The notes below the pieces were generated by a model. The model searched no databases. It was given only the letters and a program-made list of their open reading frames with translations, and was not told the DNA's origin. This document shows, piece by piece, positions 17,716 through 48,365 of a stretch of DNA of 64,000 nt (the first letter of the stretch is position 1; each line of letters opens with the position of its first letter). Both the position numbers and the translations under genes were made by a program. The DNA comes from Escherichia coli O157:H7. Its GTDB lineage: Bacteria; Pseudomonadota; Gammaproteobacteria; Enterobacterales; Enterobacteriaceae. The DNA lies in the NCBI RefSeq assembly GCF_013167455.1, contig NZ_CP038328.1; one strand, 5' to 3'.

Positions 17716-17791
17716 TGGTGGGTCGTGCAGGATTCGAACCTGCGACCAATTGATTAAAAGTCAACTGCTCTACCAACTGAGCTAACGACCC
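17716..17791 (-). tRNA. tRNA-Lys (UUU)
   Basis: 76 nt; reverse complement reads GGGTCGTTAGCTCAGTTGGTAGAGCAGTTGACTTTTAATCAATTGGTCGCAGGTTCGAATCCTGCACGACCCACCA. Confidence 0.95.
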
Positions 17792-17839
17792 ATACGGGTG
17801 TTACCTGAAAGATTTCTACTCGGAACCAATCTTTAAAAT

Positions 17840-17856
17840 TGGTGGGTCGTGCAGGA
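17840..17856 (-). pseudogene. tRNA-Lys 3'-end fragment (17 nt remnant)
   Basis: TGGTGGGTCGTGCAGGA is identical to the 3' end (including CCA) of the intact tRNA-Lys copies, then diverges; upstream context TTAAAATTGG also matches a spacer. Confidence 0.6.
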
Positions 17857-17937
17857 TGACTCGCTTCGCTTGCCCTACGGGCCGTTGCTGACGCAACGTT
17901 ATCCTTCACGCTTAACATCTGAGTTTGATGTTAAAAT

Positions 17938-18013
17938 TGGTGGGTCGTGCAGGATTCGAACCTGCGACCAATTGATTAAAAGTCAACTGCTCTACCAACT
18001 GAGCTAACGACCC
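17938..18013 (-). tRNA. tRNA-Lys (UUU)
   Basis: 76 nt, identical to the copy at 17716-17791. Confidence 0.95.
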
Positions 18014-18016
18014 GAG

Positions 18017-18092
18017 TGGTGGGTGATGACGGGATCGAACCGCCGACCCCCTCCTTGTAAGGGAGGTGCTCTCCCAGCTGAGCTAATCACCC
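18017..18092 (-). tRNA. tRNA-Val (UAC)
   Basis: 76 nt; reverse complement reads GGGTGATTAGCTCAGCTGGGAGAGCACCTCCCTTACAAGGAGGGGGTCGGCGGTTCGATCCCGTCATCACCCACCA. Confidence 0.95.
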
Positions 18093-18143
18093 GATACTGC
18101 GCTGGATACTACAAACTACTTCCACCGAACCCACCGTAATTAG

Positions 18144-18219
18144 TGGTGGGTCGTGCAGGATTCGAACCTGCGACCAATTGATTAAAAGTCAACTGCTCTA
18201 CCAACTGAGCTAACGACCC
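18144..18219 (-). tRNA. tRNA-Lys (UUU)
   Basis: 76 nt, identical to the other tRNA-Lys copies. Confidence 0.95.
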
Positions 18220-18221
18220 GG

Positions 18222-18297
18222 TGGTGGGTGATGACGGGATCGAACCGCCGCCCCCCTCCTTGTAAGGGAGGTGCTCTCCCAGCTGAGCTAATCACCC
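18222..18297 (-). tRNA. tRNA-Val (UAC), one-base variant
   Basis: 76 nt; differs from the copy at 18017-18092 by one base in the variable-loop region (GCCCCCC versus GACCCCC on the plus strand). Confidence 0.9.
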
Positions 18298-18332
18298 GAT
18301 ATTACGCTGGATACTACAACTAACTAGGTTAG

Positions 18333-18408
18333 TGGTGGGTCGTGCAGGATTCGAACCTGCGACCAATTGATTAAAAGTCAACTGCTCTACCAACTGAGCT
18401 AACGACCC
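18333..18408 (-). tRNA. tRNA-Lys (UUU)
   Basis: 76 nt, identical to the other tRNA-Lys copies; first gene of the array (promoter lies at higher coordinates). Confidence 0.95.
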
Positions 18409-18572: not shown

Positions 18573-19364
18573 TTACATCGCGTTCAGACGTTTTTGTGCC
18601 TGTTTAGCGCCATCAGTACCAGGGTATTTACTGATAACCTGCTGGTATACGGCTTTCGCTTTTGCGGTGTCACCTTTGTCCTGCATGATGACGCCGACTT
18701 TAAACATCGCATCTGCAGCCTTTGGTGACTTCGGATAGTTTTTCACTACCGAAGCAAAATAGTACGCCGCATCATCTTTTTTACCCTTGTTGTAGTTTAA
18801 CTGACCCAGCCAATAATTGGCGTTTGGCAGGTAAGTTGAATCAGGGTAATTTTTGATGAAATTCTGAAATGCCACCATTGCGTCATCCTGGCGGGATTTA
18901 TCCTGCACCAGCGCAATAGCTGCATTGTAATCCGTGTTTGCATCACCGCTTTTCACCGGCGCGCCAGCATTCGCAGTACCAGCATCAGCTGTCGGCGTCG
19001 TTGATGCCGCCGCACCGCTTTGATCACCGCTGGTTGATTGCGCCGCTGCACCACCGCTGCTGAGGCTGTCGATCTGCAACAGGATCTGCTTTTGCCGCTC
19101 CACGACCTGATTCAGTTGATACTGATTTTCCTGAATCTGACCACGCAGGGAATCAATATCGGATTGATTATCAGAGAGTTGTTGCTGGAGTTGGGTTAAA
19201 AGCTGGCTGTGAGCATTAGAAATACGCTCAAGTTGAATGACGCGGTCTTCGACCGAGCCTGAGCCGACACTACTGATTGGTGCCTGAGCAAAAGCGGCCC
19301 AGGGGGCCGCTATACCAACCAGTAACGACAGACTCAATAGTTGATGTCTGAAGTTACTGCTCAT
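18573..19364 (-). CDS. cpoB: cell-division coordinator CpoB (YbgF), TPR protein
   Basis: 263 aa ORF with signal peptide, coiled-coil and C-terminal TPR repeats; last gene of the tol-pal cluster. Confidence 0.88.
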   Translation of the reverse strand: MSSNFRHQLLSLSLLVGIAAPWAAFAQAPISSVGSGSVEDRVIQLERISNAHSQLLTQLQQQLSDNQSDIDSLRGQIQENQYQLNQVVERQKQILLQIDSLSSGGAAAQSTSGDQSGAAASTTPTADAGTANAGAPVKSGDANTDYNAAIALVQDKSRQDDAMVAFQNFIKNYPDSTYLPNANYWLGQLNYNKGKKDDAAYYFASVVKNYPKSPKAADAMFKVGVIMQDKGDTAKAKAVYQQVISKYPGTDGAKQAQKRLNAM

Positions 19365-19373
19365 GCAATTCTC

Positions 19374-19919
<546 letters not shown>

Positions 19920-27790: not shown

Positions 27791-27804
27791 TTGATTTATA
27801 TCAA
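27791..27804. promoter_or_regulatory. FNR-type site in the cydAB upstream regulatory region
   Basis: TTGATTTATATCAA is a perfect TTGAT-N4-ATCAA match, about 340 bp upstream of the cydA start in a long AT-rich region. Confidence 0.55.
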
Positions 27805-28258
27805 AACCAACCAAATATGTTAATTATGTATAAACCATAGATCATTGGTGATTTTATTGTTAATTTATTGTGAAATATTTATGCAACACAATTATTACAA
27901 TGAAAAGGTATAGATAAAAAACCAGTATTTTATTTAACAGAACCGCCTTATCCACTTTTTATAATACCAATTGATTAGAGTAGCCAATTTGTTGCTATTT
28001 TACATAACATATTTTTATCAAAGTTAATTGATTGTTGCCTTTATGAGCACCGACCGTAAGCCCGTTATGTTATTGTTTCATTAGTAATAATCACTTAAAT
28101 GTATCGATGAAACAGGTATGACTTACCGGGAGTGATTGTTTCTGAGTGAACAGAGGCCACTTTCGCCTGATAAATGAAAAATGAGCGATTTTTGCAAGTT
28201 AGTTTTTCTATAGCCGAGTACGCTCAGCGCCTCGCTTGATTACAATGAGGTTGCTGCT

Positions 28259-29203
28259 ATGAGTCCTGATAATATCGGTTCGGCTGTCAATCGCTTCTCA
28301 GGTTGGCCATCTAATGATTCTCTAAAAACAGATAAAGAATCAATGACATCACCCGTGACTGTGCAGGTAATAAAGATGATTGCCGCCATCCTTGACCCAC
28401 ATCGGATAGTCGTTGGAATTGATACACTTTATACAACGCAGCGCGAAACATTTACCTCAGAGAGTCAACAGCTCATTGAATCAGCATTGCAAACACTTCA
28501 TGTGATGAATTTAAATAATCTGGAAACAAATCGCGATGAAGAAAGTCACTATCTGGCTTTTGAATATAACGTTGACACCTCTGACAGAATAACCGTTTCT
28601 GCTTATAATGAAAAAAAACCTGGCTGCTATGGCCAATGTCTTGTAATACAGGATGACGAAACAGACTTATTTAACCTGATAAAAATTAAAATTTTCGAAG
28701 CCAGGCATAATTATGTCGCTCAATTGATGAGCGATCCGGAATTTATGTTCAAATTCAGTTATAGCGCTCAACAAAATAGATTAGAACCTCATCTTCTGGT
28801 TCCCGCTTATTTCCCTCTAAAAACAAACGAACCGGTTACGCAAGAGGATGTACTGTTACTTTATCGTTTCTTTAAAATGAATGATGATTTTAATAAATTA
28901 ACATCAGATGAATACATGAGTATCCTGACACCTCTGATGAAGTGTGAGCGTAGCGTCCACGACAACAACAGGTATGTGACGGGCAAAGATACCCTTCTTC
29001 TGGACTATCCTCCTTCTGGTAACCAGATACATTTCCATGTTTTCCCTGACGAATCAGCAACACTAGTCCTTTATTTTTCAAACAATGACATTGAATGTTT
29101 CGTCTTTGAAAGAGATATTCCGAGCCAGTATCGCTTTTTCAAAATGTTTACCAATCTGGCACTGGTTATAGATCAGTTAACCGAAGCCAATAAAATACTT
29201 TAA
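28259..29203 (+). CDS. hypothetical protein, 314 aa, no recognisable family (AT-rich gene)
   Basis: 945-nt ORF in markedly AT-rich DNA where chance ORFs of this length are unlikely; no motif recognised by eye; start could alternatively be the internal ATG near 28345. Confidence 0.6.
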   Translation: MSPDNIGSAVNRFSGWPSNDSLKTDKESMTSPVTVQVIKMIAAILDPHRIVVGIDTLYTTQRETFTSESQQLIESALQTLHVMNLNNLETNRDEESHYLAFEYNVDTSDRITVSAYNEKKPGCYGQCLVIQDDETDLFNLIKIKIFEARHNYVAQLMSDPEFMFKFSYSAQQNRLEPHLLVPAYFPLKTNEPVTQEDVLLLYRFFKMNDDFNKLTSDEYMSILTPLMKCERSVHDNNRYVTGKDTLLLDYPPSGNQIHFHVFPDESATLVLYFSNNDIECFVFERDIPSQYRFFKMFTNLALVIDQLTEANKIL

Positions 29204-29284
29204 TTTTCTATATATCCCCTATGGCAAATATTGCTAAACAATGCCTGGGGATTAATTTTTATTACTCACGGAAAGATTTAAATA

Positions 29285-29707
29285 ATGATACCATCTCAGA
29301 TCTCTTTCAATACCCTTCCAGTCAATGCAACATACGCTTCAGAGACAACAGTTGACACACAAAAATTCTCTGACATCCTCTACTCAGCGGGGTGTTCCCT
29401 AAAGGATATGGCTTATCTGAGCAGATGTCTGGCATCAATACACCCGACTCTCGCCAAAAACATTTATGAAACAGAAAATCTCAGCGATCAAAAATTACTA
29501 CATATTGATTGCCGTAGTACAAATGAAATCAAGATAAATATCTTTTTTGGTCAACAACGAGAAGGATTAATTGAAATTAATTCTGACACAGTCATTTTTT
29601 CGATATTGTCTTCATTAATTGACTCCGCCATTTCTAAATTTCAACACCAAATCCCCGTTAACGGTTCAGTTAATCGTGAACTATTGTATGAGGATTATAC
29701 TGATTAA
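29285..29707 (+). CDS. hypothetical protein, 140 aa, no recognisable family (AT-rich gene)
   Basis: 423-nt ORF 81 bp downstream of the 314-aa ORF, same strand and similar composition; no signal peptide or motif recognised. Confidence 0.55.
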   Translation: MIPSQISFNTLPVNATYASETTVDTQKFSDILYSAGCSLKDMAYLSRCLASIHPTLAKNIYETENLSDQKLLHIDCRSTNEIKINIFFGQQREGLIEINSDTVIFSILSSLIDSAISKFQHQIPVNGSVNRELLYEDYTD

Positions 29708-30254
29708 ATCCACCCTGTCGCGAAAAATGGCCTGCGTTATTGCCAGACGTAATAAAACCTTTGATTAACGTTACTCATACTGATAGCACCTTCATGTACC
29801 TCTCTTTTTTACGAAAAATTAAAAGAGCTAACTAAGGTCATAATTCGCATGAATCATTAACCATTTGTTATTTTCAACATTATTTTTACATTAAGCAGAG
29901 ATGAATTGCAGTGAAATTCGACTTAAATCTTATGAAATGCATTTACTCATGGCTAAAACCACGTCACAAAAATGCAAATTAGAAGTAGATCACAATTATC
30001 TCAATACATTAAATCAAGTTAATTTTAAAAATTTAACACTCATGACATTAGTTGACATAACACACTGAATTAACATGGAAATTTAAAAACACACTTCAAA
30101 CAATCATTTCCCGAAAGACATTTTGAAAATAGATCAATTGCAACATTACGGTCAGATAAAGACACTCCTGTGATATTAAACCTGTGCCGTTATGAACGGC
30201 CATAAATACGACGTGTGTAACTTATTTTACTCTCTGTCTTACAAAGGATTACCC

Positions 30255-30704
30255 ATGAAGAAAGCAACACTTGTGATTGGCGTTATTGGCGCGGACTGCC
30301 ATGCAGTAGGCAATAAAGTTCTGGACCGCGTTTTTAGCAACCACGACTTCAGAGTCATTAATCTGGGCGTAATGGTCAGCCAGGACGAATATATTGATGC
30401 TGCCATTGAAACTGGCGCTGACGCGATTGTCGTCTCCTCTATCTATGGGCATGGCGATATCGACTGTCTGGGCATGCGCGAACGCTGCATCGAGCGTGGA
30501 CTGGGGGACATCCTGCTCTATGTGGGCGGTAACCTGGTGGTCGGAAAACATGACTTCGCTGACGTGGAAACCAAATTCAAAGAGATGGGATTTGATCGCG
30601 TCTTTGCCCCAAGTCATGACTTAGAAGATGTTTGCCAGCTGATGGCCCACGATATCAACCAACGTCATGACGTTGATACTCGTATTCTTGAAGAGGCTAT
30701 CTGA
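30255..30704 (+). CDS. mamA: glutamate mutase (methylaspartate mutase) S subunit, B12-binding
   Basis: ORF track 30192..30704; ATG at 30255 gives 149 aa [22 protein letters not shown] with the cobalamin-binding DxHxxG motif (DCHAVG); closely resembles clostridial GlmS/MutS. Confidence 0.88.
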
Positions 30705-32092
30705 TGCAAATCGTCTCTGTCGATATTGGATCGACGTGGACCAAAGCAGCCCTCTTTACCCGGGAGGGGGACGCGTTAACGTTGGTTAACCACGTACTGA
30801 CCCCAACCACCACCCATCATCTGGCGAAGGGGTTTTTCTCCAGCCTGAACCAGGTGTTAAACGTAGATAATGCCCTCCCCCTGTTAAACAGCGGTGAGGT
30901 TGCATTGAAGTATTCCTCCTCTGCCAAAGGTGGGCTGGCGGTTGCCGCAATGGGATTGGTGCCTTCTATCACCCTGGAAACCGCGAAAGTAACCGCTCAC
31001 TCTGCGGGTGCTAAAATTGCGCAATATTACGCCTACAAGCTGAACCGCCGTGATATCCAGGCACTGGAAGAAACGCAGCCCGATATTCTCTTGTTCACCG
31101 GCGGCACCGACGGCGGAGAAGAAAGCTACGGACTGAATAACGCCCGTGTGCTGGCAGAATCCAAACTCGACTGCGCCATTATTTATGCCGGAAACCGGGA
31201 TATTCAGGACGAGGTGCAGGAGATCCTCGGGCATAAAGACCTGACCATTGTCGACAACGTTCTGCCCGATCTTGACCATCCGAACCCTGTAGCTGCACGC
31301 CAGGCTATTTGCGACATATTCCTTAAACGCATCGTTAAAGGGAAAGGGCTGGATGTCATTGTTGATAAAACAGGCGAAGAACCAATGCCGACACCATGGA
31401 CGGTCTTTGAACTGGTCAAGGCAATCAGTAACGTCGATCACAGCTGGAAAGAGTTCATGCTGATCGACATGGGCGGCGCAACCACCGATGTTTATTCCGC
31501 CTGTGCCAACACGCTCTCGCCCGACACCGTTTTACACGGCGTACCGGAACCCTTCGTAAAACGGACGGTGGAAGGCGATCTGGGAATGCGCGTCTCGGCA
31601 GTGGTGGTTGGTGAAAGTGCGAAAGAGTTAGTCAATGTGAATTTTGCTCAGCAACCCGCACAGCTGGACGCTTTTTATCATTACCTCCGTCATCTAGTCG
31701 CTCATCCCGACTACTTACCCGCAAATGCAGAAGAGAAATATTTCGATACCGTCCTGGCCGGACTGTGTGTGGGTTATGCCACCGAAAGACATGCGGGCAC
31801 CAAAAAAGAGGTCTGCACCTGCGTCGGCAATGTCGATTTACAGATGGGACGTGACCTGACAACCGTGCGTAAAGTCGTCGGATCCGGCGGATGGCTCTCG
31901 CGTGCCAGTCAGTTCGATATGCATCACTGGTTGAAATACCGCGAGTTAAACGACGACGGTAAACGCATTCTCTTACCGACCGAATTTGAATATTACCGCG
32001 ATTCCCGGGGGCTATTACCACTGCTGGCAAACGTCGCCAGAGTCGATCCGCTGGCCGCCGCGCGCACCAGTATTCAATGCTTAACCCTATAA
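30704..32092 (+). CDS. glmL: glutamate mutase-associated protein GlmL/MutL (actin-like ATPase fold; proposed chaperone/reactivase)
   Basis: 462 aa ORF whose start overlaps the S-subunit stop by 1 nt; lies between S and E subunits as in clostridial operons. Confidence 0.7.
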   Translation: MQIVSVDIGSTWTKAALFTREGDALTLVNHVLTPTTTHHLAKGFFSSLNQVLNVDNALPLLNSGEVALKYSSSAKGGLAVAAMGLVPSITLETAKVTAHSAGAKIAQYYAYKLNRRDIQALEETQPDILLFTGGTDGGEESYGLNNARVLAESKLDCAIIYAGNRDIQDEVQEILGHKDLTIVDNVLPDLDHPNPVAARQAICDIFLKRIVKGKGLDVIVDKTGEEPMPTPWTVFELVKAISNVDHSWKEFMLIDMGGATTDVYSACANTLSPDTVLHGVPEPFVKRTVEGDLGMRVSAVVVGESAKELVNVNFAQQPAQLDAFYHYLRHLVAHPDYLPANAEEKYFDTVLAGLCVGYATERHAGTKKEVCTCVGNVDLQMGRDLTTVRKVVGSGGWLSRASQFDMHHWLKYRELNDDGKRILLPTEFEYYRDSRGLLPLLANVARVDPLAAARTSIQCLTL

Positions 32093-32110
32093 CAATTAAG
32101 GCTGCAATCA

Positions 32111-33556
32111 ATGGAACTTCGAAATAAGAAATTAACCCATGACGAATTCATGACCGAGCGGCAACAGGTACTGAAAACCTGGGAAACCGGCAAGGATGTT
32201 GAAAACTTTGAAGATGGCGTTAAATACCAACAAACCATCCCTGAGCATAAACGTTTCTCTCTTGCGCTGCTGAAAGCAGACAAGGAAGGTAAAACCCTTA
32301 GCCAACCGCGCGCAGGTGTGGCGCTGATGGACGAACACATCGAACTGCTGAAAACACTACAAGAAGAGTGCGATCTGCTGCCAAGCACCATCGATGCATA
32401 TACCCGTCTGAATCGGTACGAAGAAGCGGCTGTAGGGATTAAAAAATCCATCGAAGCCGGAACCTCTAAACTGAACGGTTTACCGGTAGTTAACCATGGT
32501 GTCGCAGCTTGCCGTCGCCTCACCGAAACCCTGCAAAAACCGCTACAGATCCGCCACGGCACGCCAGATGCGCGTCTGCTGGCTGAAATCTCAATGGCCA
32601 GCGGCTTTACCAGTTATGAAGGCGGTGGCATTTCCTACAACATTCCGTATGCCAAACGCGTAACGCTGGAAAAATCGATCCGCGACTGGCAGTACTGCGA
32701 CCGTTTAATGGGGATGTATGAAGAACACGGGATCCGCATCAACCGCGAACCGTTTGGCCCACTAACGGGTACGCTGATCCCGCCGTTTATCTCGCACTCT
32801 ATCGCGATAATCGAAGGCTTGCTGGCGCTGGAACAGGGTGTGAAATCTATCACCGTTGGTTATGGCCAGGTCGGCAGCCTGACGCAGGATGTTGCGGCGA
32901 TCCAGTCTCTGCGTGAACTTGCACACGAATATTTTCAGAGCTATGGCTATACCGACTATGAATTGAGTACCGTGTTTCACCAGTGGATGGGCGGCTTTCC
33001 GGAAGACGAATCGAAAGCGTTCGCTATTATCTCCTGGGGCGCAGCCGTCGCGGGGATGTCTGGTGCCACCAAAGTCATCACCAAAAGTCCGCACGAAGCC
33101 TGGGGTATCCCGACTGCCGCTGCCAACATTCAGGGGCTGAAAGCCTCCCGCCAAATGCTCAACATGGTCAATGAGCAGAAATTCCCGCCGTGCCCTGCGG
33201 TTGAACTGGAAATTGAACTGATTAAGAGCGAGGTTCGCGCGGTACTGAATAAAGTGTTCGAACTGGGTAATGGTGATATTGCGCGCGGAACGGTGCTGGC
33301 ATTTGAAGCGGGCGTACTGGATGTGCCGTTTGCGCCAGCCGCCTGCAACGCGGGCAAAATTCTTCCGGTCCGTGACAACACCGGCGCGATACGCGTACTG
33401 GAAGCCGGAGCCGTTCCATTGCCAAAAGATATTCTCGACCTCCACCACGATTACGTTGCGGAACGCGCACGCTGTGAAGGACGCCAACCGACATTCCAGA
33501 TGGTTGTAGATGACATCAATGCTGTATCCCACAGTAAATTAATAGGAAGACCATAA
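32111..33556 (+). CDS. glmE: glutamate mutase (methylaspartate mutase) E subunit, catalytic
   Basis: 481 aa ORF MELRNKKLTHDEF...QPRAGVALMDEHIELLK...LPSTIDAYTRLNRYEE, closely resembling clostridial GlmE. Confidence 0.9.
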   Translation: MELRNKKLTHDEFMTERQQVLKTWETGKDVENFEDGVKYQQTIPEHKRFSLALLKADKEGKTLSQPRAGVALMDEHIELLKTLQEECDLLPSTIDAYTRLNRYEEAAVGIKKSIEAGTSKLNGLPVVNHGVAACRRLTETLQKPLQIRHGTPDARLLAEISMASGFTSYEGGGISYNIPYAKRVTLEKSIRDWQYCDRLMGMYEEHGIRINREPFGPLTGTLIPPFISHSIAIIEGLLALEQGVKSITVGYGQVGSLTQDVAAIQSLRELAHEYFQSYGYTDYELSTVFHQWMGGFPEDESKAFAIISWGAAVAGMSGATKVITKSPHEAWGIPTAAANIQGLKASRQMLNMVNEQKFPPCPAVELEIELIKSEVRAVLNKVFELGNGDIARGTVLAFEAGVLDVPFAPAACNAGKILPVRDNTGAIRVLEAGAVPLPKDILDLHHDYVAERARCEGRQPTFQMVVDDINAVSHSKLIGRP

Positions 33557-34797
33557 TGAAAATAAAACAGGCTCTGTTCACCGCTGGCTACTCCTCATTC
33601 TATTTCGATGACCAGCAGGCGATAAAAAACGGAGCGGGTCATGACGGCTTTTTTTATACCGGGGAGCCAGTAACACAGGGGTTTAACGCCGTACGTCAGG
33701 CCGGGGAGTGCGTATCGGTACAGTTGATTCTGGAAAACGGCGCGGTCGCCGTAGGTGACTGTACTGCCGTACAGTATTCCGGGGCAGGCGGTCGCGATCC
33801 ACTGTTCCTCGCAGAGCACTTTATTCCGTTCCTCAACGACCATATCAAGCCATTACTGGTAGGCCGCGATGTGGATGCTTTCCTGCCGAATGCCCGTTTC
33901 TTCGACAAATTGCGTATTGACGGCAACTTGCTGCATACCGCCGTGCGCTACGGATTATCACAGGCGCTGCTTGATGCTACCGCGCTGGCAACCGGCCGTC
34001 TGAAAACTGAAGTGGTCTGTGATGAATGGCAGTTGCCACGCGTGGCGGAATCCATTCCATTATTTGGTCAGAGCGGCGACGATCGATATATCGCCGTCGA
34101 TAAGATGATCCTTAAAGGCATCGACGTGCTGCCCCATGCGCTGATTAATAACGTCGAAGAGAAGCTGGGCTTTAAAGGTGAAAAACTGCGCGAATATGTC
34201 CGCTGGTTGTCGGATCGCATTCTAAGCAAGCGCACCAGCGCACGCTACCACCCTACCCTGCACATCGATGTATACGGCACTATCGGTCTGATCTTCGATA
34301 TGGATCCGCTTCGCTGTGCGCAATACATCGCCAGCCTGGAAAAAGAAGCGCAAGGCCTGCCGCTCTACATCGAAGGGCCGGTCGATGCCGGTAACAAGCC
34401 CGATCAAATTCGCCTGCTGACCGCGATTACCAAAGAGCTGACGCGCCTCGGTTCCGGCGTGAAAATTGTGGCCGATGAATGGTGTAACACCTACCAGGAT
34501 ATTGTTGATTTCACTGATGCTGCCAGTTGTCACATGGTGCAAATCAAAACCCCGGATCTGGGCAGTATTCACAACATCGTCGATGCGGTTCTTTACTGCA
34601 ACAGCCACAGCATGGAAGCGTACCAGGGCGGCACCTGCAATGAAACTGATGTCAGTGCCCGCACCTGTGTCCACGTCGCCCTTGCCGCTCGCCCCATGCG
34701 TATGCTGGTAAAACCAGGGATGGGCTTTGACGAAGGCCTCGATATCGTCTTCAACGAAATGAATCGTACTATCGCGCTGTTGCAGGCTAAGGATTAA
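33556..34797 (+). CDS. 3-methylaspartate ammonia-lyase (beta-methylaspartase)
   Basis: 413 aa ORF MKIKQALFTAGYSSFYFDDQQAIKNGAGHDGFFYTGE...VQYSGAGGRDPLFLAE, enolase-superfamily MAL; start overlaps the glmE stop by 1 nt. Confidence 0.9.
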   Translation: MKIKQALFTAGYSSFYFDDQQAIKNGAGHDGFFYTGEPVTQGFNAVRQAGECVSVQLILENGAVAVGDCTAVQYSGAGGRDPLFLAEHFIPFLNDHIKPLLVGRDVDAFLPNARFFDKLRIDGNLLHTAVRYGLSQALLDATALATGRLKTEVVCDEWQLPRVAESIPLFGQSGDDRYIAVDKMILKGIDVLPHALINNVEEKLGFKGEKLREYVRWLSDRILSKRTSARYHPTLHIDVYGTIGLIFDMDPLRCAQYIASLEKEAQGLPLYIEGPVDAGNKPDQIRLLTAITKELTRLGSGVKIVADEWCNTYQDIVDFTDAASCHMVQIKTPDLGSIHNIVDAVLYCNSHSMEAYQGGTCNETDVSARTCVHVALAARPMRMLVKPGMGFDEGLDIVFNEMNRTIALLQAKD

Positions 34798-34800
34798 CAA

Positions 34801-36171
34801 ATGGCTCGTTCTTTTAAAGTCTTATCGCCAACGGCAATCCTCGGGTATGGATTCCCGGAAGAGAGCTTCCGCAAAGCGATGGCAGAATCGCCCGATCTGA
34901 TCGCCGTTGATGCAGGCTCTTCCGATCCAGGCCCCCACTACCTCGGGGCAGGCAAACCGTTTACCGATCGCGCAGGGGTCAAGCGCGATCTGCGCTATAT
35001 GATCACCGCAGGCGTGCAAAATAATATACCGGTGGTGATCGGAACGGCTGGCGGTTCTGGTGCCGCACCACACCTGGAGTGGTGCCGAGAAATAATTCAT
35101 GAGATTGCCCGGGAAGAGCACCTCTCGTTCTCGATGGCGTTGATCCCGGCAGACGTTGACAAAGCCATCGTCCACCAGGCGCTGGATAACGGCAAAATCA
35201 CGGCGCTGGATTTTGTCCCGCCGTTAACCCACGACGCGATTGACGAAAGTACGTATATCGTCGCGCAAATGGGCATCGAACCCTTCCAGCGGGCGCTGAA
35301 AGAACGCGCGCAAGTGGTGCTGGGCGGGCGCGCTTACGACCCGGCCTGCTTTGCTGCGCTCCCGATCATGCAAGGCTTTGATGAAGGTCTGGCGCTGCAT
35401 TGTGGGAAAATCCTTGAATGCGCGGCAATCGCCGCAACGCCCGGCTCAGGCTCTGACTGTGCGATGGGCATCATTGATGACAACGGCTTTACGCTGAAAA
35501 CATTTAATCCGAAGCGTAAATTTACCGAAACGTCAGCAGCTGCACACACACTGTATGAGAAATCCGATCCCTACTTCCTGCCAGGACCTGGCGGCGTGTT
35601 GAACCTGAAAGGCTGCACATTTAAAGCAGTAAATGACGGCGAAGTCTACGTCAGCGGTTCTAAGCATGAAGAAACGCCGTATGCCCTGAAACTGGAAGGT
35701 GCACGACGGGTGGGCTTCCGCTGTCTGACCATCGCCGGAACGCGCGACCCGATTATGATCGCCGGGATCGATAAAATCATCGATGAAGTCAAAACCAGCG
35801 TTTCGCGTAACCTGTCGCTCGACGATGACAGCATTCGCATCAATTTCCACCTGTACGGCAAAAACGGGGTGATGGGAGACCATGAACCGATGCAAACTGC
35901 CGGGCATGAGCTGGGGATTGTCCTTGATGTAGTTGCACCGACCCAGGAAATTGCCAACAGCGTTTGCTCGCTGGTGCGCTCTACCATGCTGCACTACGGC
36001 TATGAAAACCGCATCGCTACCGCAGGTAATCTGGCGTTCCCGTTCTCCCCTTCTGATATCCAGGGCGGGCCGGTATACGAATTTTCCATATATCACCTGA
36101 TTGAAGCCAACGACGCTCTGCGTTTTGATTTCCATATTGAACAGGTGACGCCAGAAGGAGTTCAGGCATGA
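34801..36171 (+). CDS. uncharacterised conserved protein, 456 aa (possibly DUF1446/AtuA-like; assignment from memory, unverified)
   Basis: ORF begins 3 nt after the MAL stop; Gly-rich segment GTAGGSGAAPH; no characterised catalytic motif recognised. Confidence 0.6.
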   Translation: MARSFKVLSPTAILGYGFPEESFRKAMAESPDLIAVDAGSSDPGPHYLGAGKPFTDRAGVKRDLRYMITAGVQNNIPVVIGTAGGSGAAPHLEWCREIIHEIAREEHLSFSMALIPADVDKAIVHQALDNGKITALDFVPPLTHDAIDESTYIVAQMGIEPFQRALKERAQVVLGGRAYDPACFAALPIMQGFDEGLALHCGKILECAAIAATPGSGSDCAMGIIDDNGFTLKTFNPKRKFTETSAAAHTLYEKSDPYFLPGPGGVLNLKGCTFKAVNDGEVYVSGSKHEETPYALKLEGARRVGFRCLTIAGTRDPIMIAGIDKIIDEVKTSVSRNLSLDDDSIRINFHLYGKNGVMGDHEPMQTAGHELGIVLDVVAPTQEIANSVCSLVRSTMLHYGYENRIATAGNLAFPFSPSDIQGGPVYEFSIYHLIEANDALRFDFHIEQVTPEGVQA

Positions 36172-36485
36172 AACAGTCAATTGTCTCACTGGCGCAAGTC
36201 ATTCGTTCGAAAAATGCCGGACCTTACGAACTGGTTTTAGATATTTTATTTAAAACGAAAGAAAACTATGAGCGAGTTAAATCATCAGGGCAATTAACCC
36301 CAGAACTGATTGCACGCTTATATCATGTTGAACCTGACTTTATTCATCGTATTGTCTGGTTTGATCCTTCTAACGCAGTAAAAATCGTCATGCCACGAGA
36401 TATTATCTCCGGGAATGTAGGTGACAATGATGTCTATGGTGCACAGCAACATGCACCTTTATTAAATATGAGTTTCGATTTGTAA
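36168..36485 (+). CDS. uncharacterised small protein, 105 aa (possibly DUF4387-like; unverified)
   Basis: ORF overlapping the preceding gene by 4 nt (ATGA), indicating translational coupling. Confidence 0.55.
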   Translation: MKQSIVSLAQVIRSKNAGPYELVLDILFKTKENYERVKSSGQLTPELIARLYHVEPDFIHRIVWFDPSNAVKIVMPRDIISGNVGDNDVYGAQQHAPLLNMSFDL

Positions 36486-36568
36486 AAATCCGAATACTTT
36501 TAGCCAACTGACATCCCGTCACTTATTGCAGTTCAACACTTCAGCTATTTGTAAGGTTGTAATAGCAG

Positions 36569-36600
36569 GTAGATGCCTGAATCTCTATTCAGGCATCTAC
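36569..36600 (+). terminator. Perfect 14-bp inverted repeat (terminator or operator candidate)
   Basis: GTAGATGCCTGAAT-CTCT-ATTCAGGCATCTAC between the 105-aa ORF and the transporter gene; only a weak T-run follows. Confidence 0.45.
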
Positions 36601-36645
36601 TTCTCCTGATTCTGATTTATCGCCGTGCACCTGATGGAGGAAAAA

Positions 36646-37926
36646 ATGAAGAAAATAAGTTTAACCACGATGATTCTTTTGGCGCTGGTACTTGGAATGA
36701 TTATCGGCGTAGTGCTCAATAACACTGCTTCACCGGAAACCGCAAAACTCTATGCGCAAGAAATATCGATATTCACGACGATTTTCTTACGACTGATAAA
36801 AATGATTATCGCTCCGTTAGTGGTCTCTACCCTGGTGGTAGGTATTGCTAAAATGGGCGATGCCAAAGCCCTTGGTCGTATTTTTTCTAAAACACTCTTT
36901 TTATTTATTTGCGCCTCATTGCTGTCAATTGCCTTAGGCTTGATAACGGTAAATTTCTTCATGCCAGGTACAGGAATTAATTTTGTTGCACACGGTGCCG
37001 AAACCACCGGAGTGGTCGCGGCAGAACCCTTTACGCTAAAAGTATTTATTTCGCATGCTTTCCCCACCAGCATTGTCGATGCCATGGCGCACAATGAAAT
37101 TTTGCAAATCGTGGTGTTCTCAATTTTCCTCGGCTGTAGCCTGACGGCGATTGGCGAGAAAGGCAGCGCCATCGTTCACGCCTTAGATTCGCTGGCACAT
37201 GCCATGTTAAAGCTCACTGGCTACGTCATGCTCTTCGCTCCCCTGACCGTATTCGCTGCTATTTCAGCATTGATTGCTGAACGAGGACTGGCAGTTATGG
37301 TGAGCGCCGGGATCTTTATGGGTGAATTTTATTTCACCATGTTATTACTTTGGGTACTGCTTATCGGTCTGGCCATCGTTTATGTCGGCCCCTGCATCAG
37401 ACGCCTGACCCGCGCCCTTTCGGAACCCGCCCTGCTGGCATTTACCACATCCAGTTCTGAAGCGGCTTTTCCGGGAACGCTTGAAAAACTGGAGCAATTT
37501 GGCGTTTCCCCCAAAATTGCCAGCTTTGTCTTACCCATTGGCTACTCATTTAATCTCGTTGGATCAATGGCCTACTGCTCCTTCGCCACAGTTTTCATCG
37601 CCCAGGCCTGCAATATCCATTTATCCATCGGTGAGCAAATCACCATGCTGTTGATCCTGATGTTGACCTCGAAAGGAATGGCTGGCGTACCACGCGCCTC
37701 AATGGTGGTTATCGCCGCCACGCTCAACCAGTTCAATATTCCGGAAGCGGGGCTGATCTTGCTGATGGGCGTTGATCCGTTCCTTGATATGGGGCGTTCC
37801 GCGACAAACGTCATGAGCAACGCAATGGGCGCTGCGATGGTGAGTCGGTGGGAAGGCGAACATTTCGGCGAGGGCTGTCGGGGTAAAGCATTAAAACCCA
37901 ATGAATCGAACGTTGCTCTGCCCTGA
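36646..37926 (+). CDS. dicarboxylate/amino-acid:cation symporter (GltP/DctA family), probable glutamate or C4/C5-dicarboxylate uptake
   Basis: ORF track 36625..37926; ATG at 36646 is preceded by GGAGG; multi-TM protein MKKISLTTMILLALVLGMIIGVVLNN. Confidence 0.75.
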   Translation: MKKISLTTMILLALVLGMIIGVVLNNTASPETAKLYAQEISIFTTIFLRLIKMIIAPLVVSTLVVGIAKMGDAKALGRIFSKTLFLFICASLLSIALGLITVNFFMPGTGINFVAHGAETTGVVAAEPFTLKVFISHAFPTSIVDAMAHNEILQIVVFSIFLGCSLTAIGEKGSAIVHALDSLAHAMLKLTGYVMLFAPLTVFAAISALIAERGLAVMVSAGIFMGEFYFTMLLLWVLLIGLAIVYVGPCIRRLTRALSEPALLAFTTSSSEAAFPGTLEKLEQFGVSPKIASFVLPIGYSFNLVGSMAYCSFATVFIAQACNIHLSIGEQITMLLILMLTSKGMAGVPRASMVVIAATLNQFNIPEAGLILLMGVDPFLDMGRSATNVMSNAMGAAMVSRWEGEHFGEGCRGKALKPNESNVALP

Positions 37927-38033
37927 GGGGGATCTTAAGCAATCAGAAGCCAATGACTACGCATTTTTATAAGCCGGATCATGAAGTTAGACGGCAATTA
38001 AGTAACACTAACGTTTAAGGTGAAAAGTGAAAT

Positions 38034-39686
38034 ATGTCCAAACCATTTATCTGGCAAGAACCGTTTCTACAAAATAAAGACGGTACAGAATATACATTAA
38101 TTAGCGATCAACATATTACAGTAACGGAATTAGACGGCGAAGAAGTGATAAAAATCGCTCCTGAAGCATTAACGCTGCTTGCCCGGCAGGCATTTTATGA
38201 AGCCTCTTTTTTCTTACGTTCCGCTCATTTGCAACAGGTCGCCAGCATTCTTAACGATCAGCAGGCCAGCAGTAATGATAAATACGTTGCGTTGCAGTTA
38301 TTACGTAATGCTGAAGTCTCAGCAAAAGGGGTATTACCCAACTGTCAGGATACCGGCACCGCAACTATTGTTGCCAGTAAAGGGCAACAGATATGGACCG
38401 GAGGTAACGACGCCGAAGCCTTAAGTAAAGGCATTTACAGTACTTTCCAGGAAAATAATCTGCGCTTTTCACAAAATGCGCCGCTGGATATGTATACCGA
38501 AGTCAATACGCAAACCAATCTCCCGGCGCAGATTGATATCAGCGCTGTCGCTGGTGATGAGTACCATTTTCTCTGTGTTAATAAAGGGGGCGGCTCCGCC
38601 AATAAAGCCGCGCTTTATCAGGAAACCAAATCCTTATTGCAACCAGAAAAACTGACCGCATTTTTAATCGAAAAAATGAAATCGCTGGGCACCGCTGCCT
38701 GCCCGCCTTACCACATCGCCTTTGTCGTCGGAGGGCTTTCAGCCGATCAAACCTTAAAAATTGCCAAGCTGGCCTCAACGAAATATTACGACAATTTGCC
38801 CACCAGCGGAAACGAGCAGGGACAAGCATTCCGTGATATTGAGCTGGAAAAAGTGTTGCTCGAGGCCAGTCAGCAATTTGGTATTGGTGCGCAATTTGGG
38901 GGTAAATATTTCGCTCATGATATTCGCGTCATTCGTCTGCCGCGTCACGGTGGCTCTTGCCCGATAGCTATGGCGCTCTCCTGTTCTGCCGATCGCAATA
39001 TCAAAGCAAAAATTAACAAACACGGTATCTGGCTGGAAAAACTCGAACACAATCCGGGGCAATATATTCCAGCCTCACTGCGGGAAGAAAATCACGCGCA
39101 ACATGTACAACTGGATCTAAACCGTCCGTTGCGTGACGTGATGCAGGATCTCGCCAGATTACCAGTAGGCACCCGCGTGTCGTTAAGTGGTCCCATCGTA
39201 GTGGCGCGCGATATCGCCCACGCCAAAATAAAAGCGCGGCTGGATAGCGGCGAACCGATGCCGGAGTACCTGAAGCATCATATTGTCTATTACGCTGGCC
39301 CGGCGAAAACACCGGAGAACATGGCCTGCGGTTCACTGGGTCCAACCACGGGCGGTCGAATGGACGGTTATATCGATACCTTCCAGGCGGCTGGCGGCAG
39401 TCTAGTGATGTTATCGAAAGGTAACCGCAGCCAGCAGGTCACCGATGCCTGTCACAAACATGGCGGCTTCAATCTGGGAAGTATTGGCGGTGCAGCTGCG
39501 TTACTGGCGCAAGAATATGTCAAAAGTCTGCGTTGCCTGGAATACCCGGAGCTGGGTATGGAAGCGGTGTGGATGATGGAAGTGGAAAATCTGCCCGCAT
39601 TCATCCTGGTAGATGATAAAGGCAATAATTTCTTTAGTCAGTTTGAGCAGCAACACCGCTGCGCCAGTTGCCCTGCGGGACATTAA
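38034..39686 (+). CDS. fumD: class I (Fe-S) fumarate hydratase paralogue, FumD-type mesaconase/fumarase
   Basis: 550 aa ORF closely similar to FumA/FumB over its length ([38 protein letters not shown]), located in the glutamate mutase cluster. Confidence 0.85.
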
Positions 39687-39695
39687 GGAAAATGA

Positions 39696-40298
39696 ATGGA
39701 AGCGCGAATTTCAACTGAACGGCATGTGCAGCGCCAACAGAAATTGAAGGAACAGGTCGATACGCGCGTCGCGGCGGCGATAGAGAAAAAAGGGATCTTG
39801 ATTGTTTTCACCGGCAACGGCAAAGGGAAATCCACTGCCGCGTTTGGTACTGTGACGCGCGCGGTGGGTCATGGCAAAACGGTGGGGGTTGCGCAGTACA
39901 TCAAGGGGCAATGGGACAACGGCGAATACAACCTTCTCCAGCCGCTGGGGGTTGAGTTTCATATTATGGGAACCGGTTTTACCTGGGAGACACAGAACCG
40001 GCAAGCGGATATCGACGCGGCGAAAGAGGTCTGGTCGGAAAGCAAACGGATGCTGGCTGACAAGCGTTACGACTTAGTGGTGCTTGATGAGCTGACCTAT
40101 ATGCTGGCTTACCATTATCTGGATACCGAAGAAGTGATCGCTTCTCTGCAAAACCGCCCGGCACAACAAAGTGTCATTGTCACCGGACGCGGTTGCCACA
40201 GTCAGATATTAAAAATGGCAGATACGGTCAGCGAAATCCGCCCCGTCAAACATGCTTTTGATAACGGCATTCAGGCCCAGCCGGGTATCGACTGGTAA
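39696..40298 (+). CDS. cob(I)alamin adenosyltransferase, BtuR/CobA family
   Basis: 200 aa ORF with P-loop FTGNGKGKSTAAFG and strong resemblance to E. coli BtuR. Confidence 0.85.
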   Translation: MEARISTERHVQRQQKLKEQVDTRVAAAIEKKGILIVFTGNGKGKSTAAFGTVTRAVGHGKTVGVAQYIKGQWDNGEYNLLQPLGVEFHIMGTGFTWETQNRQADIDAAKEVWSESKRMLADKRYDLVVLDELTYMLAYHYLDTEEVIASLQNRPAQQSVIVTGRGCHSQILKMADTVSEIRPVKHAFDNGIQAQPGIDW

Positions 40299-40301
40299 TA
40301 A

Positions 40302-40334
40302 CTGCGCCTGGCATCCCGCCAGGCGCAGGTTTTA
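40302..40334. terminator. Bidirectional hairpin between convergent adenosyltransferase and LysR genes
   Basis: CTGCGCCTGG-loop-CCAGGCGCAG followed by GTTTTA; overlaps the LysR stop codon. Confidence 0.5.
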
Positions 40335-41237
40335 CATCTCCTGCGGTACGACCGATTTCGCCAGCAACCATTCACGAAATTGCTGCAAGTGCGGTGAGTC
40401 AGACTTCTCTTCCTGCCACGTCATAATAAAACGATTACCGGTACGAATAGGCACATCACAGGGAATCACCATATCGCCACTATCCAAATCATGTTGAATA
40501 GCGAAACGTGGTAACAGCGCCACGCCGAGATTAGAGCGCACGGCGGCAATCAGCATTGAAAGCAAATCGAAACGTGGTCCGTTGTTGACCAGCGGACTGC
40601 TAACGCCAGATAAAGCAAACCACTCTTCCCAGCCAGTAATACGGGTGCTTTGATGCAGAAGTGGTAACTCAGTAAGCAGTTCTGCCACTGACAGTTTTTG
40701 ATCGGACATTGCAAGCAAACTGCCGCTGCATACCGGCAAAATCTCCTCTTCAAAGAGATATTCTACTTCCGCCCAGGGCGCGCAAAAATTTTCGCGCATA
40801 ATGACAGCATCGTACTCCCGATTAAGAAAATCGCCGTTATTAGCTAAAGAATGAATATTAACAATAATATCGGGATGTAACTTTGTGAATTCATGTAAAT
40901 TTGGGATTAACCAGTGGGTACTAAAAGTAGGATTAACGGCAAGTTCAATAACCTGAACCGTAGGCTGCCAGGTCATAATGGTATTGGTATCGCGTTCCAG
41001 CTTATTTAATGTTTCTTTTACTATCCCCAGGTAATACTTCCCTGTATCATTAAGAAAAATGCGTTTTTTAGAGTGTGAAAATAACGGAGTACGTAAAAAT
41101 TCCTCCAGCGCACTTACTTGTCTGAATACTGCACTTTGGGTTAACGCTAACTCCTCTGCCGCTCTGGTATAACTTTCATGACGTGCGACGACCTCAAAAG
41201 TCACCAGCAGTTCCGTTTTAGGTATTTTCCCTCGCAT
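40332..41237 (-). CDS. LysR-family transcriptional regulator
   Basis: 301 aa ORF with N-terminal HTH (LLVTFEVVARHESYTRAAEELALTQSAVFRQVSALE) and C-terminal substrate-binding domain. Confidence 0.85.
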   Translation of the reverse strand: MRGKIPKTELLVTFEVVARHESYTRAAEELALTQSAVFRQVSALEEFLRTPLFSHSKKRIFLNDTGKYYLGIVKETLNKLERDTNTIMTWQPTVQVIELAVNPTFSTHWLIPNLHEFTKLHPDIIVNIHSLANNGDFLNREYDAVIMRENFCAPWAEVEYLFEEEILPVCSGSLLAMSDQKLSVAELLTELPLLHQSTRITGWEEWFALSGVSSPLVNNGPRFDLLSMLIAAVRSNLGVALLPRFAIQHDLDSGDMVIPCDVPIRTGNRFIMTWQEEKSDSPHLQQFREWLLAKSVVPQEM

Positions 41238-41802
41238 AATGCCGTCCCTTAAAAATAGTTTAAACCATCAAAAATACATTACTTATTACGAAGTAATGGT
41301 AACCAAAGCAGCAATAAATAATTTATAAGAATCATGATTGACATTTATAAACCAGTAAGGCTGGCGTGACAAATATCTTAATCAGATAATAATAATCCGA
41401 AAAGCACAGCGCCTTTCGAATTATCCGGAATCACATTAAGTGAAAATTATTAAATTGATATCATTTATCATATCTGTGGATATTATGATAAACAATCAAC
41501 AAAGATTTTATTTTTGATTTATAGCATATCCCTCTAAGAATTTTTGCGATGCTGCAATATCCGGGGTAAAGACCCGATCCTGGCTGACAAATGGCACGAC
41601 TTGACGAAAAGCGGTGAACATCGCTTTTGTTGATTTACTTAACGCTACGGTCAAACGCTGGGAAGCCAGTGCATCAGGTAACGATTCGAAATTCGCCGTC
41701 GTTCTTATTCGTGGCTTGCGGTCGGTTGCGGCAATCCACAGTGGCTGTGGTCATGCAGTCAAGCCTGCAGTCAGATTTCGACCGTGGTTAACCGTTTAAG
41801 GC

Positions 41803-41903
41803 ATAAAAAAGGCCATCATACGATGGCCAACCATGTCGAAACCGACAGCCCTTCGCCATTCCTGTAGAGGGAAGCGGCGAGGGCTATTTCTTATTACAGA
41901 TAT
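41803..41903 (-). ncRNA. sdhX: SdhX (RybD) sRNA region, sucD 3'UTR ending at an intrinsic terminator
   Basis: 3'UTR of sucD on the minus strand ends in GGCCATCGTATGATGGCC plus TTTTTT and contains ACAGGAATGGCGAAGGGCTGTCGGTTTCGACATGG, which I recall as the SdhX region; exact 5' end not determined. Confidence 0.55.
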
Positions 41904-42773
41904 TTATTTCAGAACAGTTTTCAGTGCTTCACCGATATCCGCCAGGCTGCGAACGGTTTTCACGCCTGCGGCTTCCAGAGCAGCGAATTTCTCATCCGCA
42001 GTCCCTTTCCCACCGGCAATGATGGCACCCGCGTGGCCCATACGTTTGCCTTTCGGCGCAGTCACACCAGCGATGTAACCCACAACTGGCTTGGTAACGT
42101 GCTCTTTGATGTACGCAGCTGCTTCTTCTTCAGCGCTACCGCCGATCTCACCGATCATCACGATCGCTTCGGTCTGCGGATCTTTTTCGAACATTTCGAG
42201 AATGTCGATAAAGTTAGAGCCAGGGATCGGGTCACCGCCGATACCGACACAGGTCGACTGACCGAAACCGTAATCCGTGGTCTGTTTAACCGCTTCATAG
42301 GTCAGTGTACCGGAACGGGAAACGATACCCACTTTACCCGGTTTGTGAATGTGACCAGGCTGAATACCGATTTTGCATTCACCCGGAGTGATAACGCCTG
42401 GGCAGTTCGGGCCGATCATACGAACGCCTGCTTCATCCAGCTTCACTTTCACGGTCAGCATATCCAGCGTCGGGATGCCTTCAGTGATGGTGATAATCAG
42501 TTTGATGCCTGCGTCGATGGCTTCCAGAATGGAGTCTTTGCAGAACGGTGCTGGTACGTAGATAACAGAAGCGGTAGCGCCAGTAGCAGCAACAGCTTCA
42601 CGCACGGTGTTGAACACCGGCAGGCCGAGGTGGGTAGTACCGCCTTTACCTGGGGTTACGCCGCCAACCATTTTAGTGCCGTATGCAATGGCCTGTTCTG
42701 AGTGGAAAGTCCCCTGGCTACCGGTAAAGCCCTGGCAGATAACCTTGGTGTTTTTATCAATTAAAATGGACAT
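41904..42773 (-). CDS. sucD: succinyl-CoA synthetase alpha subunit
   Basis: 289 aa [48 protein letters not shown]. Confidence 0.92.
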
Positions 42774-48245: not shown

Positions 48246-48365
48246 GCCTGATGCGCTGCGCTTATCAGGCCTACGGGTAATGACTTGTAGGCCGGATAAG
48301 GCGTTCACGCCGCATCCGGCACTGGTTGCCTGATGCGACGCTTGCGCGTCTTATCAGGCCTACGG
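48246..48365. repeat. BIME with three REP units between sucA and sdhB
   Basis: GCCTGATGCGCTGCGCTTATCAGGCCTACG, GTAGGCCGGATAAGGCGTTCACGCCGCATCCGGCA and GCCTGATGCGACGCTTGCGCGTCTTATCAGGCCTACGG. Confidence 0.8.

Follow-up and report, generated by a model that had tools for sequence, protein, structure and literature searches.

The sequence analyzed here (referred to below as the window) is a stretch of 64,000 nucleotides from Escherichia coli O157:H7 (RefSeq assembly GCF_013167455.1, contig NZ_CP038328.1). Homology to E. coli K-12, as determined by blastn, stops at position 27829 of the window and resumes at position 41797, and the sequence in between forms a strain-specific island at the sdhX/sucD–cydA junction. 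In K-12, this position is taken by mngR-mngA-mngB (mannosylglycerate utilization), which the island replaces, such that strains carry either one gene set or the other at the sucD/sdhX–cydA site; the K-12 sequence including sdhX is kept beside sucD, with 99% identity across the junction. The features of the island that are relevant to our analysis are as follows:

27830–41796, no strand assigned: strain-specific island of 13,967 bp, delimited by blastn against K-12, holding fumD and its neighbors
28259–29203 and 29285–29707, plus strand: two orphan ORFs of 314 and 140 aa, with 36–38% GC, at the cydA-side edge of the island
30255–30704, plus strand: glmS, subunit S of glutamate (methylaspartate) mutase (NF002612, 253 bits against a cutoff of 110; the RefSeq annotation agrees)
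30704–32092, plus strand: glmL, glutamate mutase accessory protein, reactivase-like (NF040745, 510.7 bits against a cutoff of 475)
32111–33556, plus strand: glmE, subunit E of glutamate mutase (TIGR01503, 866 bits against a cutoff of 390)
33556–34797, plus strand: mal, 3-methylaspartate ammonia-lyase, which makes mesaconate, the FumD substrate (TIGR01502, 542.7 bits against a cutoff of 286)
34801–36171, plus strand: cmlA, "AtuA family/DUF1446" protein, orthologous to the large citramalate lyase subunit in PDB 9ERQ/9EVF
36168–36485, plus strand: cmlB, DUF4387 protein, orthologous to the small citramalate lyase subunit in PDB 9ERQ/9EVF
36569–36600, plus strand: perfect hairpin with arms of 14 bp and a loop of 4 nt, within the 160 nt that separate cmlB from the symporter gene (–27.2 kcal/mol, z-score –5.4)
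36646–37926, plus strand: symporter of the dicarboxylate/amino acid:cation family, GltP/DctA-like (the RefSeq start is at window position 36646)
38034–39686, plus strand: fumD, class I [4Fe-4S] mesaconase/fumarase of 550 aa, ECs_0757 (RefSeq WP_000042485.1)
39696–40298, plus strand: cobO, cob(I)yrinic acid a,c-diamide (corrinoid) adenosyltransferase (NF004637, 295.6 bits against a cutoff of 185; TIGR00708, 246.6 bits)
40302–40328, no strand assigned: strong stem-loop of 11 base pairs, 9 being G-C, at the point where the cobO and LysR genes converge (–28.1 kcal/mol, z-score –5.1)
40332–41237, minus strand: LysR-family (GcvA-like) regulator, a candidate regulator of the island (LysR family in RefSeq; NF008352, 220 bits, which is below the cutoff of 288)

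The plus strand of the island reads, in order, the two low-GC orphan ORFs, an AT-rich spacer of 547 nt, the block glmS-glmL-glmE-mal-cmlA-cmlB, and the block symporter-fumD-cobO. The genes of the first block are separated by gaps of only –4 to 18 nt, with cmlB overlapping cmlA by 4 nt, and the gaps further on measure 160 nt (cmlB to symporter), 107 nt (symporter to fumD), and 9 nt (fumD to cobO). Upstream of fumD, at a distance of 3.2–7.8 kb and in the same orientation, lie glmS, glmL, glmE, and mal, each with a score that exceeds its curated NCBIfam cutoff; this agrees with the placement of the fumarase homologue inside a glutamate mutase cluster, and away from the fumA and fumB loci, in a preliminary description of this DNA. 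Searches of NCBIfam and PADLOC with the two orphan ORFs at the island edge gave no match, and a PDB search with the larger ORF was equally negative.

An ORF scan of the window returned a reading frame of 550 codons, from ATG to TAA, that occupies exactly positions 38034–39686 of the plus strand. This ORF is 100% identical to the Sakai gene ECs_0757, with 0 mismatches over 1653 nt, as is the island as a whole, all 13,967 bp of which match the Sakai sequence with 0 mismatches. The fumD DNA is also 100% identical to that in many E. coli O157:H7 chromosomes, and, of 5426 complete E. coli genomes, 1121 carry fumD, as a single copy. These identical matches, together with the presence of the ORF in this number of genomes, indicate that fumD is a real and conserved gene.

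An additional class I fumarase was described in O157:H7 by Kronen and Berg (PLoS One 2015, PMC4682846), who named it FumD (ECs0757/ECATCC700728_0849), purified and characterized it, and counted its gene as the fourth fumarase gene of O157:H7, with the class II enzyme FumC included. Their enzyme was cloned from strain ATCC 700728, and our comparison with that strain covers the primer sites: the gene-specific part of their primer FumD_fwd, ATGTCCAAACCATTTATCTGGC, matches exactly at 38034–38055 (plus strand), and that of FumD_rev, TTAATGTCCCGCAGGGCA, matches exactly at 39669–39686 (minus strand), each at a single site in the window. The gene of the 2015 study is the same gene as the one analyzed here, the ECs_0757 sequence being without any difference from the ORF of the window, and the neighborhood given in the legend to Figure 5 of that study (GltP, FumD, CobA, and LTTR, with DUF1446 downstream of mal) agrees with that of the window. 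The 2015 study had already reported this gene, the activity of its enzyme, and its genomic setting for an identical sequence, and the preliminary description was correct in calling the finding established rather than new.

The names carried by this gene in public records do not reflect this. The Sakai record gives ECs_0757 the name fumA, the RefSeq label for WP_000042485.1 is "class I fumarate hydratase", and the listed RefSeq genes with full (100%) identity to K-12 fumA are named fumB. With fumD named fumA on the one hand, and sequences identical to K-12 fumA named fumB on the other, the names of class I fumarases in public records are unreliable, and the annotation of fumD, still either fumA or simply class I fumarate hydratase, is outdated.

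At the protein level, FumD carries both Pfam domains of class I fumarases, namely Fumerase (PF05681, residues 50–325, E 1.6e-74) and Fumerase_C (PF05683, residues 331–536, E 3.2e-78), on one chain of 550 aa, as is characteristic of the single-chain FumA/FumB type. The protein also matches its own NCBIfam equivalog, NF011921, over positions 1–550 of 550, with 1287 bits against a cutoff of 1060, and the ORF is accordingly the class I fumarase of 550 aa that had been proposed. The PDB copy searched contains no structure of FumD itself, and the closest solved structure is that of the Leishmania major fumarate hydratase LmFH-2 (5L2R, E 4e-210), with which FumD residues 18–536 align without large gaps and share all active-site residues, although LmFH-2 differs from FumD in being eukaryotic, in having an N-terminal extension, and in having been studied as a fumarase.

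We used 13 active-site residues of the Leishmania enzyme (LmFH) as a checklist, taken from bioRxiv 10.1101/2022.09.03.506457, where they comprise the cluster cysteines Cys133, Cys252, and Cys346, the acid Asp135/His334, the base Thr467 with Arg421 and Arg471, and the remaining residues Gln134, Arg173, Gly216, Thr468, and Lys491. All 13 are kept in the alignment with FumD. The [4Fe-4S] ligands of FumD are Cys104, Cys223, and Cys317, aligned to Cys133/252/346 of LmFH and Cys105/224/318 of FumA, and the ten catalytic and substrate-binding residues kept in FumD are Q105, D106, R144, G187, H305, R392, T438, T439, R442, and K462. As all of these residues are kept, the [4Fe-4S] Lewis-acid mechanism of class I fumarases applies to FumD by homology. 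By analogy with the Leishmania enzyme, the fourth iron of the FumD cluster would act as a Lewis acid on the substrate hydroxyl group or water, the base would be Thr438 (with Arg392 and Arg442), and the acid would be Asp106 together with His305. FumD adds water reversibly to mesaconate (methylfumarate) to give (S)-citramalate, and also to fumarate to give malate. Class I fumarases are homodimers, and their activity is in general oxygen-sensitive and is restored by Fe2+ and thiol (Kronen and Berg 2015, PMC4682846); in the case of FumD, activity was much higher when all steps were anoxic, as reported in the same study.

FumA and FumB resemble FumD in their two-domain architecture, in the three cluster cysteines, in all 10 catalytic and substrate residues, and in being promiscuous between fumarate and mesaconate (as found in the 2015 study), and the ORF was previously described as very similar to them. 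The homology stands, but the degree of similarity had been overstated: over 545 residues, FumD is 68% identical to K-12 FumA and 67% identical to FumB, which is well under the 90% identity of FumA and FumB to each other. FumD further differs from both in its locus, in its NCBIfam model, and in a reversed substrate preference (discussed below). It scores 924.5 bits on the FumA model NF011919, below the cutoff of 1105, and 920.6 bits on the related class I model NF011920, again below the cutoff of 1094. The fumD locus, between sucD/sdhX and cydA, corresponds to neither of the K-12 loci compared, manA-fumA-fumC and dcuB-fumB. Furthermore, a megablast search with K-12 fumA matched 5425 of 5426 complete E. 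coli genomes, at a median of two places per genome and at most two, never three. Since this query finds two places (fumA and fumB) and never a third, fumD is an additional, more distant paralogue, and the same median shows that fumA and fumB are generally present alongside it.

These data leave a negligible probability that the ORF at 38034–39686 is a displaced orthologue of fumA or fumB. Such a displacement would be in keeping with the name fumA in the Sakai record, and with a length class and a set of domains that are the same as those of FumA and FumB, but it is contradicted by the gap between 68%/67% and 90% identity, by the NCBIfam scores, which fall under the cutoffs of the FumA model and NF011920 and over that of NF011921, and by the fumA query, which gives two places in most genomes, and never three, with fumD not among them. 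We reject it on the grounds of identity, NCBIfam cutoffs, and locus. The alignments that the preliminary description had proposed as a check on this point, against FumA, FumB, and characterized FumD, gave 68%, 67%, and 100% identity, respectively, the last of these at the nucleotide level to ECs_0757.

To locate differences between FumD and its paralogues, we considered the 64 aligned positions at which FumA, FumB, and the Leishmania enzyme have the same residue and FumD a different one. Seven of these lie near active-site motifs in the sequence (I111T, T235L, A307G, G312A, V315L, A440G, and A461S), and these replacements, for instance A440G between the catalytic Thr438/Thr439 and Arg442, may be candidates for the shift in specificity toward mesaconate.

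The kinetic parameters published for this sequence (Kronen and Berg 2015, PMC4682846) comprise, for FumD with mesaconate, a Vmax of 292 U/mg, a Km of 0.15 mM, and a kcat/Km of 2x10^6 M-1 s-1 (Table 2 of that study), compared to a Vmax of 671 U/mg, a Km of 0.9 mM, and a kcat/Km of 7.5x10^5 M-1 s-1 with fumarate. In the reverse direction, the corresponding values were 104 U/mg, 0.92 mM, and 1.1x10^5 M-1 s-1 with (S)-citramalate, and 52 U/mg, 0.2 mM, and 2.6x10^5 M-1 s-1 with (S)-malate. The preference of FumD for mesaconate is modest, at about 2.7-fold in kcat/Km, and the Vmax is higher with fumarate; FumD is a promiscuous enzyme that is shifted toward mesaconate, which fits its place beside enzymes that make mesaconate from glutamate. 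With FumA and FumB, the efficiency with mesaconate is only 4% and 19%, respectively, of that with fumarate (Kronen and Berg 2015, PMC4682846).

It is worth asking, in this context, whether FumD could physiologically be a third, redundant fumarase, for example an anaerobic or stress backup, with a mesaconase activity that merely expresses the general promiscuity of class I enzymes. The fumarate Vmax and kcat/Km of FumD are similar to those of a true fumarase, the residues of its active site are the same as in FumA and FumB, mesaconate is also hydrated by both of the latter, and expression of the glutamate pathway was never detected in the 2015 study. A redundant fumarase would, however, not be expected to show a Km that is 6-fold lower, and a kcat/Km that is 2.7-fold higher, for mesaconate, where the relative efficiency of FumA and FumB is 4–19%, and it would be added to genomes in which fumA and fumB are generally present as well. 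The gene content points in the same direction, as fumD was accompanied by glutamate mutase and methylaspartase in every case surveyed in 2015 (PMC4682846), and an orthologue of citramalate lyase is found on the same island, in a nearly equal number of genomes. We therefore regard a purely redundant fumarase as quite improbable. The reading we prefer, to which we assign a probability of roughly 0.9, is that the ORF at 38034–39686 is the fumD gene of E. coli O157:H7 and encodes the mesaconase that performs the third step of a methylaspartate route encoded on the island. The preliminary description had likewise proposed a FumD-type mesaconase that converts mesaconate to (S)-citramalate after methylaspartase, and this is borne out by the identity of the ORF to ECs_0757 and by the published kcat/Km values of 2x10^6 and 7.5x10^5.

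Taking the neighboring genes into account, the proposed route would start with the uptake of glutamate, putatively by the symporter, followed by conversion of glutamate to 3-methylaspartate by GlmS/GlmE, with GlmL and with adenosylcobalamin from CobO. Mal would then release ammonia from 3-methylaspartate to give mesaconate, which FumD would hydrate to (S)-citramalate as the third step of the route, and CmlAB, judged by its orthology to a deposited citramalate lyase, would cleave citramalate to pyruvate and acetate. The role of CobO here is to supply adenosylcobalamin for glutamate mutase.

The assignment of the last step comes from a sequence search of the PDB. In phmmer searches, CmlA matches 9erq_A over its full length with 92.1% identity (E 1.3e-291), and CmlB matches 9erq_B with 84.6% identity (E 5.2e-57); chains A and B of PDB 9ERQ/9EVF were deposited as "Citramalate lyase, subunit A (cmlA)" and "subunit B (cmlB)". 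CmlA has no NCBIfam match, our literature search for DUF1446, DUF4387, and AtuA returned no matches, and it found no primary paper on CmlAB. A 2026 preprint reports that cmlAB of Raoultella planticola, obtained as a gift, cleaves citramalate directly to pyruvate and acetate. On the strength of the names of the deposited orthologues and of this preprint on the Raoultella enzyme, we infer that CmlAB is the citramalate lyase of E. coli and performs the step after FumD. No citramalate lyase was found by Kronen and Berg (2015, PMC4682846), for whom the fate of citramalate remained open, and CmlAB, if it is a citramalate lyase, would fill this step. With the orthology of CmlAB, the island would encode every step by which glutamate is converted to pyruvate, acetate, and ammonia, FumD acting in the middle; by the fumD count of 1121 among 5426 complete E. 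coli genomes, a seemingly full methylaspartate pathway is present in about one genome in five.

As with fumD, the public labels of these likely citramalate lyase genes give little indication of such a function. In the Sakai annotation, cmlA and cmlB appear as "3-methylaspartate ammonia-lyase" (ECs_0760) and "acyl-CoA synthetase" (ECs_0759), respectively, and the corresponding RefSeq-style labels are "AtuA family protein" and "DUF4387".

The gene clusters of Clostridium tetanomorphum and C. tetani, as described in the 2015 study, resemble the island in combining glutamate mutase, methylaspartase, a mesaconase of the class I fumarase type, and citramalate lyase. In the Clostridia, however, two separate genes encode the N-terminal and C-terminal domains of the mesaconase, and citramalate is cleaved by a citrate lyase homologue, whereas the island combines a mesaconase of the single-chain FumA type with an unrelated AtuA/DUF4387 pair as the candidate lyase.

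The preliminary description placed fumD in an operon with a dicarboxylate symporter. A member of this transporter family is indeed adjacent, ending 107 nt upstream of fumD, with its ATG at 36646 preceded by GGAGGAAAAA, but the operon is suggested by spacing and terminators only, and the substrate class cannot be read from the sequence. The symporter scores 314 bits on the NCBIfam model for DctA (cutoff 513) and 302 bits on that for GltP (cutoff 638), and since it falls under both cutoffs, its substrate is not assignable in this way; Kronen and Berg (2015, PMC4682846) labeled it a glutamate transporter. We note that a transporter beside a class I fumarase is not diagnostic in itself, as K-12 fumB also adjoins dcuB.

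On the side of transcription, the symporter, fumD, and cobO probably form one unit, given their spacing on the same strand, the strong terminator after cobO, and the finding of no convincing terminator-like site in the 107 nt between symporter and fumD. The cobO gene starts 9 nt past the fumD stop codon, with a ribosome-binding site that overlaps this stop, and the stem-loop at 40302–40328 is likely the end of the fumD transcription unit, common to the convergent LysR gene. No sigma-70 promoter-like site precedes fumD in the 107-nt gap. Over the region, there are 7 promoter-like sites, compared to a mean of 17 in shuffled sequences, and with fewer such sites than in the shuffles, an internal promoter can be neither claimed nor excluded. 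The hairpin at 36569–36600, the arms of which are unique in the window, is possibly an internal attenuator, an element of RNA processing or stability, or a palindromic protein-binding site. No cobalamin riboswitch or other RNA regulator was found by Rfam at the gathering score, or at E<=1, over 27800–41950.

The separation of glmSLE-mal-cmlAB from symporter-fumD-cobO by this strong hairpin could also be read as a sign that the symporter and fumD, together with cmlAB, serve mainly in the uptake and degradation of external C5-dicarboxylates (mesaconate or citramalate), in the manner of the promiscuous class I fumarase of Burkholderia xenovorans, and not in B12-dependent glutamate fermentation. 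The use of mesaconate by B. xenovorans via a class I fumarase is cited by Kronen and Berg (2015, PMC4682846), and the symporter is as close to DctA as to GltP, while passing the cutoff of neither. Against this, the 9-nt gap between fumD and cobO is of a length suited to translational coupling of the two genes, and the product of cobO is required by the B12-dependent mutase alone; the island also appears to be passed on in its entirety, and the chemistry of FumD is alike under both readings. We consider such a primary role in external C5-dicarboxylate use unlikely, and retain the glutamate-derived methylaspartate route as the context of FumD.

Inheritance of the island as one unit appears to be reflected in its distribution, with near-equal counts among the 5426 complete E. 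coli genomes for fumD (1121), cmlAB (1125), and the island-edge ORFs (1135). Separately, the searches with fumD, cmlAB, and the edge ORFs each returned exactly one match that lies on a plasmid instead of a chromosome, which suggests either a plasmid-borne or a misassigned copy of the island.

Whether and when the route operates is a different question. E. coli O157:H7 ATCC 700728 showed no methylaspartate ammonia-lyase activity under any condition tried, and neither grew on glutamate nor was stimulated by it, with or without cobalamins (Kronen and Berg 2015, PMC4682846), and with neither methylaspartase activity nor growth on glutamate detectable in O157:H7, the pathway may be silent or conditional. 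Our literature search, using ECs locus tags and pathway terms, found no functional or expression studies of the O157:H7 island beyond that of Kronen and Berg, and a 2024 transcriptome paper on the chicken cecum merely lists enzymes of the methylaspartate pathway. The very AT-rich, non-coding stretch of 547 nt at 29708–30254, upstream of glmS, holds no strong promoter-like site on the plus strand, and we speculate that this AT-rich region may relate to the failure to detect expression in 2015, for example through silencing of acquired DNA.

The in vivo direction of flux through the FumD route, as drawn above, is putative, as is any role in the gut. A broader interpretation, which we put forward tentatively and which is more likely to fail than to hold in full, is that the island encodes a complete, self-contained, B12-dependent glutamate route that ends in an AtuA/DUF4387 lyase of the non-citrate-lyase type, is silent in the laboratory, is induced in the gut or host via the LysR regulator, and confers a colonization advantage on EHEC and other island-bearing enterobacteria.

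Finally, RNAs of the core genome were observed elsewhere in the window (17716–18408, 19335–19473, and 48290–48360), namely a cluster of tRNA genes, four for tRNA-Lys and two for tRNA-Val, with an accompanying RtT element, the CpoB/ybgF RNA thermometer, and naRNA4, the last of which is located between sucA and sdhB.
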